Positions 12,411-46,053 of a stretch of DNA of 64,000 nt are shown piece by piece (the first letter of the stretch is position 1; each line of letters opens with the position of its first letter). Both the position numbers and the translations under genes were made by a program. The DNA is from Octopus vulgaris. Lineage: Eukaryota. A model generated the notes under the pieces. That model was given only the letters and a program-made list of their open reading frames with translations, was not told the DNA's origin and did not search any database. The stretch spans positions 21,080,001 through 21,144,000 of the forward strand of contig OX597829.1 in NCBI GenBank assembly GCA_951406725.2, in the 5' to 3' direction.

Positions 12411-13207
12411 ACTTTGAACGTAAACTAGTAAAAATAAGCTATCCACACAGTAACTATATACAAAAATGTGTTGAAATATCATCTTCTGGAATATACATAT
12501 ATCATCATTATCATCATCATTTAGTGTCCATCTTCCATGTATGCATGGGTGGGATGGTTGACAGGAGCCAGCCAGTTAGAAAAACTACCCTAGGTTACTG
12601 TGTCTGTTTTGACAGGGTTTTTACAGCAGGATGTCCTTCCTAACACCAACCACTATGCAGAATGGACTCAGTGCTTTTTACATGGCACTAGCACAGGTGT
12701 AGTTAGTTTTGGTATAATTTTTACAGCTGGATACCCTTCCAAACATCAACCATGTTACAGTGTTAACTAGATGCTTTTAACGTGGCACCAGCACAGGTAG
12801 GGTAACCAAGTAACTCACAAGACAAGTAATTATGAGAGGGGCAGGGCATTCAAGGAGAGAAACTTAAGGTTACAGTGTTACAAAGACACAGAGACAGAAG
12901 CAGGTGTCTTGCAACTAGAGGTGGGGTATTAGAGGAGATGATCCAGTATCAAATGATGAAAGGTTAGAATGTAACAGGGAAATAGAGAGACGATTTGACT
13001 GAGGTCTGGCGATCCAGATGGCTGCACCAGACTCCAATCTAATCTGGCAGTGTTTCTACAGCTGAATGCCCTTCCTAAAGCCAACCACTCCAAGAGTGTA
13101 ATGGGTGCTTTTACATCCCACCGGCATGAGGGCCAATCAGGTGGTACTGGCAACAACCACACTCAAATGGTGTTTTATATCTATATATCTATATATATAT
13201 ATATATA

Positions 13208-14099
13208 TACAATCAACCAATAAAGGTGAGAAAATTGGGTACTAATTTAATAGCACATCCATTTACCACCAAGTGGCTTAGTGCATAAAAAACCCAGATT
13301 ACGACACATTTTATACATAAATATAAGAGAGTGACCACCATGTGGTCTACTCTAGCACTAAAAATAGATCCGCAAGGTTTCAGCCACAAAAGAAATTGTT
13401 TCCGTTGAAAGTTAGCACGACTACTAGCGCAAATGAACTAATCTGCATTTTTGTTATTTTTATTTGCCCTGTTCGTTTGCGCTAGTAGTCGTGCTAACTT
13501 TCAACGGAAACAATTTCTTTTGTGGCTGAAACCTTGCGGATCTATTTTTAGTGCTAGAGTAGACCACATGGTGGTCACTCTCTTATATTTATGTATAAAA
13601 TGTGTCGTAATCCGGGTTTTTTATGCACTAAGCCACTTGGTGGTAAATGGATGTGCTATTAAATTAGTACCTAATTTTCTCACCCTTATCGTTTGATTGT
13701 AATTATGCTGCATTTAATTTTGGATGTAGTATTTGTTTCCGTGAATTTTGGCGGGCGATGACAGGGGCACTTGAATTATAACAGCAAGTACAATCGACTC
13801 AACTGCACGTGCGTTTATCGTTATGGTGAAGTCTAGCGTGCGATCGGGTAAATTGTATTCTGGATGGGTTCGGCTGAGGAGCTACAGATGAATTTATGTA
13901 AGTAAAAGCACATAATTTATTAATAGCGAAACAATTGTCTTGAACTAATCTACATTTTGTTATGTTTATTTGCCCTGTCCATTTGTGCTGGTAGTAGTGC
14001 TAACTTTCAACGGAAACAATTTCTTTTGTGGCTGAAACCTTGCGGATCTATTTTTAGTGCTAGAGTAGACCACATGGTGGTCACTCTCTTATATTTATG

Positions 14100-14103
<4 letters not shown>
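13208..14103 (+). mobile_element. Hammerhead-bearing non-autonomous Penelope-like/retrozyme-like insertion: inverted copy + 507-nt unit + partial unit, in (TA)n
   Basis: 13208-13438 is the reverse complement of 13471-13701; 13941-14102 directly repeats 13434-13595; (TA)n on both sides; intact hammerhead at the unit junction. Confidence 0.88.
13868..13945 (+). ncRNA. Type I hammerhead ribozyme
   Basis: Stem I GTTCGG/TTGAAC; core CTGAGGA 13874-13880; stem II GCTA/TAGC; GAAAC 13928-13932; palindromic AATT; GTC cleavage triplet 13937-13939. Confidence 0.9.
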
Positions 14104-14132
<29 letters not shown>

Positions 14133-14889
14133 TTATGTATGTATGTATCGTCATCATCATTGTTTAGCGTCCGCTTTCCATGTTAGCATGGGTTGGACGG
14201 TTTGACTGGGGTCTGGGAAGCCAGAAGGCTGCACCAAGCCCAGTCTGATCTGGCAATGTTTCTACGACTGGATGCCCTTCCTAACGCCAACTACTCCGTG
14301 AGTGTAGTGGGTGCTTTTTACGTGCCAGACAAGGCTGGCAAACAGCCACGATCGGATGGTGCTTTTTACGTGTCACCGGCACGGATGCCAGTCGGGGCGG
14401 CGCTGGCAATGGCCATGTTCGGATGGTTCTCTTACGTGCCACCAGCACTGGTATCACAGCTACAATTTCCATTGATGTTGATCGATTTTGATTTTGATTT
14501 TGATTCTGATTCTCACTTGCCTCAACAGGTCTTCACAACTAGAATTCTGTGTCCCAAGAAGGAAAGGTATGCATAAGTGGACCAGCTACATCCCAGGTAG
14601 AGGCCACGGGTTATGGTCTCACTTCTCCTGCCAGATCTTCTCATGCACAGCATACTTCCATAGGTCTCGGTCTCTAGTCATTTCCTCGGTGAGACCTAAA
14701 GTTCAAAGGTTGTGCTTCACCACCTCGTTCCAGGTTTTCCTGGGTCCACCTCTTCCACAGGTTCCCTCAACTGCTAGGGTGTGGCACTTTTTCACACAAC
14801 TATCTTCATATATATTGTTGGTAAAAATTATAAATCTGAAAAAGAAGCATACTGTAAGTTATAGAGCAATAAAGTATAGCAATAAAAAT

Positions 14890-45637: not shown

Positions 45638-45674
<37 letters not shown>

Positions 45675-45677
<3 letters not shown>

Positions 45678-46049
45678 TCAAAGTGAGTTATCTACAGTAG
45701 CGGTAACACATCGTGACGTATATTTACCATTTCAATATGGCTAACCCCGAAGGGTGGATGCTACTGTAGTTTTTAGCCCCAGGAGGACACACTCCTCCAG
45801 CTGGCCATAGACACACTTTCTGTGTCCTGTCAGTATTTGTCACACGCTGACGAGAGGTCAATACCTCGAAACTCGAGTCCGTGTGTATCATAAGTTGAAG
45901 ACGGGAAGGATGACTTCCCTTTGCAAATACTGACAGGACACAGAAAGTGTGTCTATGGCCAGCTGGAGGAGTGTGTCCTCCTGGGGCTAAAAACTACAGT
46001 AGCATCCACCCTTCGGGGTTAGCCATATTGAAATGGCAAATATATGTCA

Positions 46050-46053
<4 letters not shown>
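45675..46053. mobile_element. Fold-back element in (TA)n with a hammerhead in the spacer
   Basis: Near-identical ~130-bp inverted arms 45710-45839 and 45924-46053, TA runs on both flanks. Confidence 0.88.
45841..45885 (+). ncRNA. Minimal type I hammerhead ribozyme
   Basis: CACACG-CTGACGA-GAGGT-CAAT-ACCTC-GAAAC-TCGA-GTC-CGTGTG; stems I and II perfect, palindromic stem III. Confidence 0.93.

Follow-up and report, generated by a model that had tools for sequence, protein, structure and literature searches.

Inverted retrozyme-like insertions in Octopus vulgaris and the probable priming of both (TA)n target strands at two fixed sites

A short repeat with a hammerhead motif lies head to head with an inverted copy of itself at 13208-14103 of the window, by which we mean the whole 64,000-nt stretch of Octopus vulgaris DNA that was analysed, and the question that it raises is how such an insertion was made. 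The forward copy begins 1 nt from the point at which the ribozyme is predicted to cut, and the original prediction read the locus as a record of the integration mechanism: a cleaved RNA was primed at a TA target and copied to its ribozyme-made 5' end, and the cDNA folded back on a few matching bases to self-prime the inverted arm. The features are given below, with unit positions (u) numbered from u1 = 13434 and all other positions counted in the whole window; the parts of the hammerhead were assigned from the sequence.

13176..13207, no strand: left (TA)n target microsatellite
13208..13433, minus strand: inverted arm, u268 to u43, its outer end being fixed end B (u268)
13208..13311, minus strand: the "tail", u165-268, 104 nt, at the outer end of the inverted arm only
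13434..13438, plus strand: inversion junction TGAAC, the first bases of the forward copy
13434..13490, plus strand: 5' patch with alleles of the major ("G") subfamily
13434..13939, plus strand: one repeat unit, 507 nt from cut site to cut site
13867..13946, plus strand: type I hammerhead with a short palindromic stem III, architecture as in PMC4209133
13867-13873/13940-13946, plus strand: stem I
13874-13880, plus strand: hammerhead core CTGAGGA
13881-13884/13924-13927, plus strand: stem II
13928-13931, plus strand: GAAA
13931-13938, plus strand: ACAATTGT
13940..14103, plus strand: terminal partial unit, u0-164, with pure minor-subfamily alleles, its outer end being fixed end A (u164)
14104..14148, no strand: right (TA)n target microsatellite

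The bases at 13937-13939 are GTC, followed at 13940-13950 by TTGAACTAATC. The forward copy at 13434 opens TGAACTAATC; it lines up with 13941, which is base 2 of the predicted cleavage product, at a unit spacing of 507 nt (or 506, given a 1-nt indel at u15). Complementarity between the arms, 13203-13438 and 13471-13706, is 97%, and at the junction GAAC (13435-13438) stands opposite GTTC (13471-13474). T13434 is mismatched with G13475, which leaves an overlap of 4 bp with a terminal mismatch, the unbroken match of the arm stopping at 13433. G13475 was considered as a later mutation of a perfect 5-bp overlap and rejected as such, since it is the usual allele of the major subfamily. Measured against the column majorities of the locus's own subfamily, the overlap is 5 nt; chance pairs reach at least 5 nt in about 0.7% of cases and at least 4 nt in about 2%. 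Both outer ends of the element merge into (TA)n, and no target-site duplication is definable at the locus because both flanks are (TA)n. The (TA)n target sits among copies of a common interspersed repeat of 60 to 100 nt (12606-13180 and 14190-14460). On re-reading of the sequence, the original coordinates for the cut, the 507-nt unit, the GAAC/GTTC overlap and the (TA)n flanks all hold, as does the start of the upstream copy within 1 nt of the cut site.

By standard hammerhead numbering, which we take to apply here, the predicted cut falls after C13939. Among the copies compared, the ribozyme core is intact, with N7 its sole variable position, and the stems are paired in 98.4% of cells (13 stem pairs, 21 distinct copies), as against 10-42% when the partners are slid. 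Covariation is weak: one pair is altered on both sides, and the score was reached by 19 of 500 shuffles. The isolated 91-nt ribozyme piece folds no better than shuffles (z -1.19), and the whole 507-nt unit folds far better (z -4.07, 0/100). An Rfam scan of the window at gathering thresholds returned 0 matches and missed the hammerhead. The type I hammerhead, for which cleavage is predicted, is backed by its intact core and by stem pairing across the 21 copies; the motif and predicted cut position first proposed are supported. In older copies (L019, L020, L030, L032, and L016) CCGA stands in place of CTGA in the core, as in a Penelope-like element described below (L200). Hammerheads with a short palindromic helix III are described in PMC4209133 as cleaving mainly as dimers.

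The locus belongs to a repeat family for which a first look at the genome gave 1872 candidates for the 507-nt unit, 40 of which were scored. The annotated set of 121 insertions, which includes two pairs of segmental duplicates, was assembled by means of a junction pattern, a whole-genome list of motif matches, and three similarity searches. Sampled loci are mostly best-scoring matches rather than a random draw, and only the counts of the u2-18 motif, the ribozyme pattern, and the post-cut motif are whole-genome counts. Two subfamilies dominate, diverged by about 2.2% and 2.9% from their column majorities, and family runs carry at most 3 ribozyme junctions. A looser ribozyme pattern gave 2164 exact matches genome-wide for this and a sister family together, and most of the 100 listed belong to the sister family. 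The latter, a young family, has a unit of about 534 nt (fold z -9.13), at least 1898 units with one exact 21-nt motif, a tail of about 125 nt, and arrays with as many as 13 ribozyme junctions, often placed head to head (contig C1, loci L172-L199).

In content, the element matches animal non-LTR retrozymes. The family resembles those described in passages of PMC7229834 and 10.64898/2026.07.22.740005 in its tandem low-GC repeat, in the type I hammerhead of each unit, and in its dispersal as dimers to multimers. Those retrozymes encode no protein; here, the RT, GIY-YIG, and transposase matches lie in flanking elements, and none was found inside the repeat among the 60 longest of 283 stop-free frames scanned. 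Its units of 507 and 534 nt are longer than the 170 to 400 nt or so given there and fall outside the range of about 150 to 450 nt that defines such retrozymes, and the passages of neither paper describe head-to-head arrays that have two fixed ends in (TA)n. This locus holds one complete hammerhead, a point on which it departs from the definition of a non-LTR retrozyme; six other copies (L004, L005, L009, L021, L026, and L028) conform to that definition. Judged by sequence features, the family is probably a retrozyme, with cleavage and circles putative. A circular RNA template and a Penelope-like partner have been proposed for animal retrozymes (PMC7229834, Cervera and de la Pena 2020; 10.64898/2026.07.22.740005, Li et al. 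2026). Both families are partly covered by assembled contigs of putatively RNA runs, one showing high summed depth for the sister family; such contigs are uninformative on ends, strand, level, or circles.

The ends of the copies proved more regular than the original prediction supposed. Among 198 family runs, 87 end at about u164 (end A), 84 at about u268 (end B), and 27 elsewhere, with the 5' ends spread out. Of the 87 A ends, 78 have (TA)n within 12 nt, as have 71 of the 84 B ends (149/171 canonical ends). The ends fall at two points despite 46 TA steps and 8 T[AG]TA sites in the unit itself. Letters of the target type replace the element's own at these (TA)n-flanked ends: A at u160 occurs in 57 of 85 terminal copies as against 9 of 121 internal ones, and A at u266 in 46 of 56 as against 1 of 54. 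This is as expected of a primer overlapping its template, and it supports the part of the original reading that had priming at a TA target.

The two ends are also paired with each other. Sixty-five of the 121 insertions begin with a minus run and finish with a plus run. Both ends are canonical in 51 of these, comprising 50 A/B, 1 B/B, and 0 A/A insertions, and 14 more have a noncanonical end. With one segmental duplicate removed (L035/L040), 49 of 50 are A/B (P = 4.5e-14 at p = 0.5). The B/B exception, L143, has one arm at 77% identity that lies about 300 nt from the other. Single-arm copies number 26 with end A, 24 with end B, and 2 with another end. Among 28 loci of the sister family, every inverted array (15 of 15) is A/B at the homologous sites; both end motifs show this in 11, and in 4 the A end was placed by BLAST coordinate only. 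Arms within a locus differ by 3.1% as against 5.5% between loci, and rare alleles are common to both arms at 0.97% as against 0.05% of sites, also in L002 and L019, where neither arm is contained in the other. Arms of a locus thus usually come from one source, L044 being an exception, and shared arm alleles can also stem from later conversion, as in L100.

This insertion architecture is that of Penelope-like elements (PMC8557442, PMC2377424). In passages of PMC8557442, PMC2377424, PMC11167929, and PMC4209133, endonuclease-positive members of that group (Penelope/Poseidon, Neptune, and Naiad) are described with a partial tandem and an inverted 5'-truncated copy, a tail at one end, microsatellite targets, and a hammerhead with a small palindromic helix III. 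The differences are that no ORF was seen in the element, one for RT plus GIY-YIG being found only elsewhere in the genome, and that the tail is 30 to 40 nt there as against 104 nt here and about 125 nt in the sister family. The passages of the Penelope papers place the tail "often" at one end, whereas a strict pairing of one end of each kind was counted here.

In this context, the inverted insertions were likely made by a borrowed Penelope-like RT/GIY-YIG enzyme that primed both strands of the (TA)n, one at each fixed site (u164 and u268), with the two cDNAs joined head to head. Dispersed copies lie in (TA)n and have two fixed 3' ends, one of each kind paired, and variable 5' ends. Passages of PMC11167929 describe a purified Penelope-like enzyme that nicks, and extends from, each strand of AT-rich DNA. 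Its two starting points, internal to the RNA, match the bounds of the genomic tail; a dimeric form is predicted for it, and it works on uncut RNA, ribozyme cleavage not being required. The pairing rule and these in vitro data together argue that each target strand is primed, and at a site different from that of the other. Probably as a dimer spanning the 104-nt tail, the enzyme would nick both strands, and from each 3'-OH a cDNA would begin at a separate site. In most cases the sequence copied continues through an intact ribozyme, and the template would be a multimer left uncut or a circle closed by ligation. The 3' ends of both cDNAs would then be joined with an overlap of 0 to 5 nt, and loss of one cDNA would leave a single-arm copy with end A or end B. 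Some points stand against this model. In vitro, start sites did not differ between the strands (PMC11167929), whereas the model needs one site per strand, and plain twin priming on one pure RNA would not give the foreign alleles that this locus carries in its inverted arm.

At the clean junctions of the family (43 of 60), the mean overlap is 1.4 nt against a null of 0.72, a value compatible with any end joining, and overlaps of at least 5 nt occur in 4 of 43. An inner end at u37-39 (GTTCA, complementary to u1-5) recurs in five runs (L001, L044, L071, L081, and L029), one of which (L071) joins the GTTCA stretch to a different TGAAC near u363; u37-39 is possibly a joining or pause hotspot.

Twin priming was first described for L1, reportedly by Ostertag and Kazazian in 2001. 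Twin or dual priming of L1 resembles the process proposed here in that both target strands prime cDNA, a 5' inversion results, and there is little or no microhomology at the join (PMC2837659). In L1 the second site is variable and the fragments do not overlap (PMC2837659), whereas the sites used here are both fixed, neither of them being an RNA 3' end, and overlap of the arms means that one stretch of RNA is copied twice.

The form of the template may differ between the two families. The sister family shows 1.4 substitutions per 534 nt between units of one array (173 pairs), 1.1 between units of opposite arms (38 pairs), and 16.6 between units of different arrays (153 pairs). In one array (L184) 10 units show no substitution. 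Variants are mostly singletons (gap columns were left out, and the last unit of L180 was misprojected), and in L178 one site is common to 4 nonadjacent units. Near identity of units across both arms suggests a circular template, which we regard as rather the better bet for this family. Near identity is also found between some sister arrays (at the minimum, 0 substitutions), and transcripts of homogeneous parent arrays are a possible template as well. For the long copies of the 507-nt family, a partly cut linear dimer is favored by a small margin. In L002 two full units carry 201A and the terminal copy is without it, a pattern that a linear dimer fits better than a circle.

A more specific geometry may be considered, tentatively. 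An enzyme dimer would straddle the tail of one retrozyme RNA, often circular, with one start site per target strand, and both reverse transcriptases would roll round the unit until they met head to head.

The candidate source of such an enzyme lies among the GIY-YIG loci, for which a first look gave 6136 candidates in the genome; 148 of 150 scored were matched. Many stand in intact-looking open frames of exactly 781 amino acids with equal scores (e.g., C16:20838796, L208), which suggests, from the frames themselves, a recently active Penelope-like family and a candidate partner. An autonomous partner was not found: among the matches listed, neither monomer has a significant BLAST match to Penelope-like sequence in 32 of the 6136 loci, once family copies lying in L200 and L201 are set aside. 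This is a further difference from Penelope-like elements, as no link of the unit to a pseudo-LTR was found in those 32 loci. GIY-YIG or RT frames near L148, L022, L131, L156, and L108 were considered and belong to neighboring elements. A head-to-head Penelope-like element at L200:1800-5930 (C4, 95.73 Mb) encodes RT, a cysteine-rich linker, and GIY-YIG at the C terminus, lies in (TA)n about 180 nt from a retrozyme copy, and is Neptune-like by the description in PMC8557442. Each of its pseudo-LTRs has a hammerhead-like motif with a CCGA core, and its arms end about 30 nt apart. It was rejected as the partner, its pseudo-LTR showing no similarity to the unit by BLAST, but as a parallel case it counts, together with the abundance of GIY-YIG candidates, in favor of two-site priming.

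Other hammerhead-like motifs, from different sequence families, occur near GIY-YIG elements at L201:2558, L209:45, and L210:208 and 455. The window itself holds a second, unrelated hammerhead-type element in (TA)n at 45673-46053. Its 130-nt inverted arms (45710-45839 and 45924-46053) are 98% alike, and a hammerhead-like motif with a palindromic stem III spans roughly 45841-45887. The left arm alone carries some 37 extra nt, a tail of Penelope size.

A cut RNA driving the fold-back of its own cDNA would, if true, give the ribozyme a part in integration, and copies should then stop at the cut site. All 95 exact genome matches of the u2-18 motif were read and 94 were kept; L150 was dropped as a match of 19-20 nt without family alignment, and a reversed-pattern control gave 1 match. 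Stops within about 1 nt of the cut numbered 3 of 94, as against 1.3 expected from a background of 0.47% per nt (P = 0.15), and 2 of 93 without this locus (P = 0.38). One of the three ends (L006) extends 3 nt and is ambiguous through microhomology. An enrichment of about 8-fold was rejected, as the background had been set too low and L150 wrongly counted. The claim that breakpoints track the cut site therefore failed in the pooled sample, where stops at the cut did not significantly exceed background. In 28 sister loci, 0 of 101 ribozyme passes stop at the cut, in a sample that needs an intact ribozyme and misses first-arrival stops, and genome-wide 1871 of 1898 post-cut motifs of that family retain the upstream ATTGTC, so that at most 27 stop. 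Copying to a ribozyme-made 5' end as the general route is not supported by these counts. Sorted by ribozyme order, stops occur at 0 of 88 ribozymes met first and at 3 of 6 met second, upstream (Fisher P = 1.5e-4; post hoc, six runs), or at 2 of 5 without this locus (P = 0.002; post hoc). If cutting depends on a dimer (PMC4209133), it may take place at the upstream ribozyme when a transcript holds two. Ribozyme-made 5' ends are probably real but rare, and the data leave the ribozyme a minor role in integration, in line with passages of PMC11167929.

One such end may be that of the locus itself. Its forward copy carries major alleles at 6 of 6 diagnostic sites (u12, 15, 25, 42, 51, and 57), switches to the minor ("A") subfamily between u58 and u70, and carries minor alleles from u71 on, and the foreign G alleles recur in the inverted arm at u51 and u57. 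Between the arms there is no difference over u43-179, whereas 5 sites differ in u180-268. Of 316 segments, none apart from this locus and one arm of L044 shows internal discordance. Under two-site priming, the cDNA started at end A likely changed template near u58-70, to an RNA of the other subfamily, ran off the probably ribozyme-cut 5' end of that RNA, and was joined through GTTC/GAAC. Alternatively, and compatibly with two-site priming, u268 may have been primed as usual and the inner inverted arm made by fold-back of the first cDNA after it had switched to, and run off, the cut RNA; this is possible, though we lean somewhat against it. One event would then cover the 5' end at u1, the foreign patch at u1-57, and the u51 and u57 alleles shared by the arm, and the restriction of cut-site ends to second ribozymes (3/6 as against 0/88) is what dimer cutting through a palindromic stem III would predict (PMC4209133). 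Against this, the inverted arm offers just two informative sites, twin priming on a chimeric RNA or later conversion of the arm gives the identical pattern, the split by second arrival is post hoc on six runs, and the fold-back hairpin, taken as DNA by itself, is unstable (+1.06 kcal/mol). Even with a fold-back here, a second priming event is needed for the outer end, u268. Of the original account of this inverted arm, then, the in-register geometry stands and is joined by the shared foreign alleles, and the u268 end is left unexplained by it.

Palindromes are unstable, and the two fixed ends could owe their existence to later events rather than to two primings, namely, endonuclease trimming of the inserts or recombination or conversion within the palindromes. 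Homogenized arms do exist, those of L100 showing 1 difference in 407, and passages of PMC8557442 ascribe the tail to endonuclease-mediated resolution. We consider this unlikely, as terminal copies bear target-type letters several bases inside the element, in the manner of a primer overlapping its template, the tail ends have been mapped to RT start sites (PMC11167929), and the pairing rule holds in very young arrays without substitutions.

Fold-back of a single cDNA as the route of the whole family, the last alternative and a very improbable one, has on its side the in-register junction of this locus, a second u38/u1 junction in the genome (L044), and the fold-back inversions known at DNA breaks and L1 sites (10.1101/2024.12.14.628481), and is opposed by the cut-site counts, the absence of A/A pairs, the fixed outer end at u268 that it does not explain, the instability of the hairpin, and the extent of the arms. 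Self-priming needs one arm to be contained in the other, and in 27 of 47 inverted pairs with canonical ends neither arm is, which excludes it for those pairs unless each lost a unit by later recombination; such loss is possible for single cases, hardly for more than half of the young copies. The 20 contained pairs have loops of 0 to 345 nt, only 5 of them of 40 nt or less. In L044, the only other copy with the u38/u1 junction, the forward arm (u2-164) is too short to template an inverted arm reaching u264, and the alleles differ at 8 of 123 sites. The idea that this locus records the integration mechanism cannot be sustained in view of these results: it is an exception, not a record of the family's route.

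Two-strand priming at two fixed sites bears on matters that the literature leaves unsettled. The formation of tandem and inverted Penelope-like structures is named as an open task in PMC8557442, and Penelope-like enzymes have been proposed as the movers of animal retrozymes, with limited evidence on the life cycle (10.64898/2026.07.22.740005). A pairing rule or a twin-priming account of Penelope inversions was not found in the literature searched, which misses much of the older Penelope work, so that either is perhaps in print. Here, a probable retrozyme family bears the Penelope insertion signature in many young copies, with a pairing rule that is nearly absolute. The rule makes a prediction for the existing in vitro system, namely, that the two strands of one target use different start sites. 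The geometry of a dimer on the tail, if true, would account at once for the tail, for the inverted pseudo-LTR, and for the tandem arrays seen in Penelope-like elements and in animal retrozymes.
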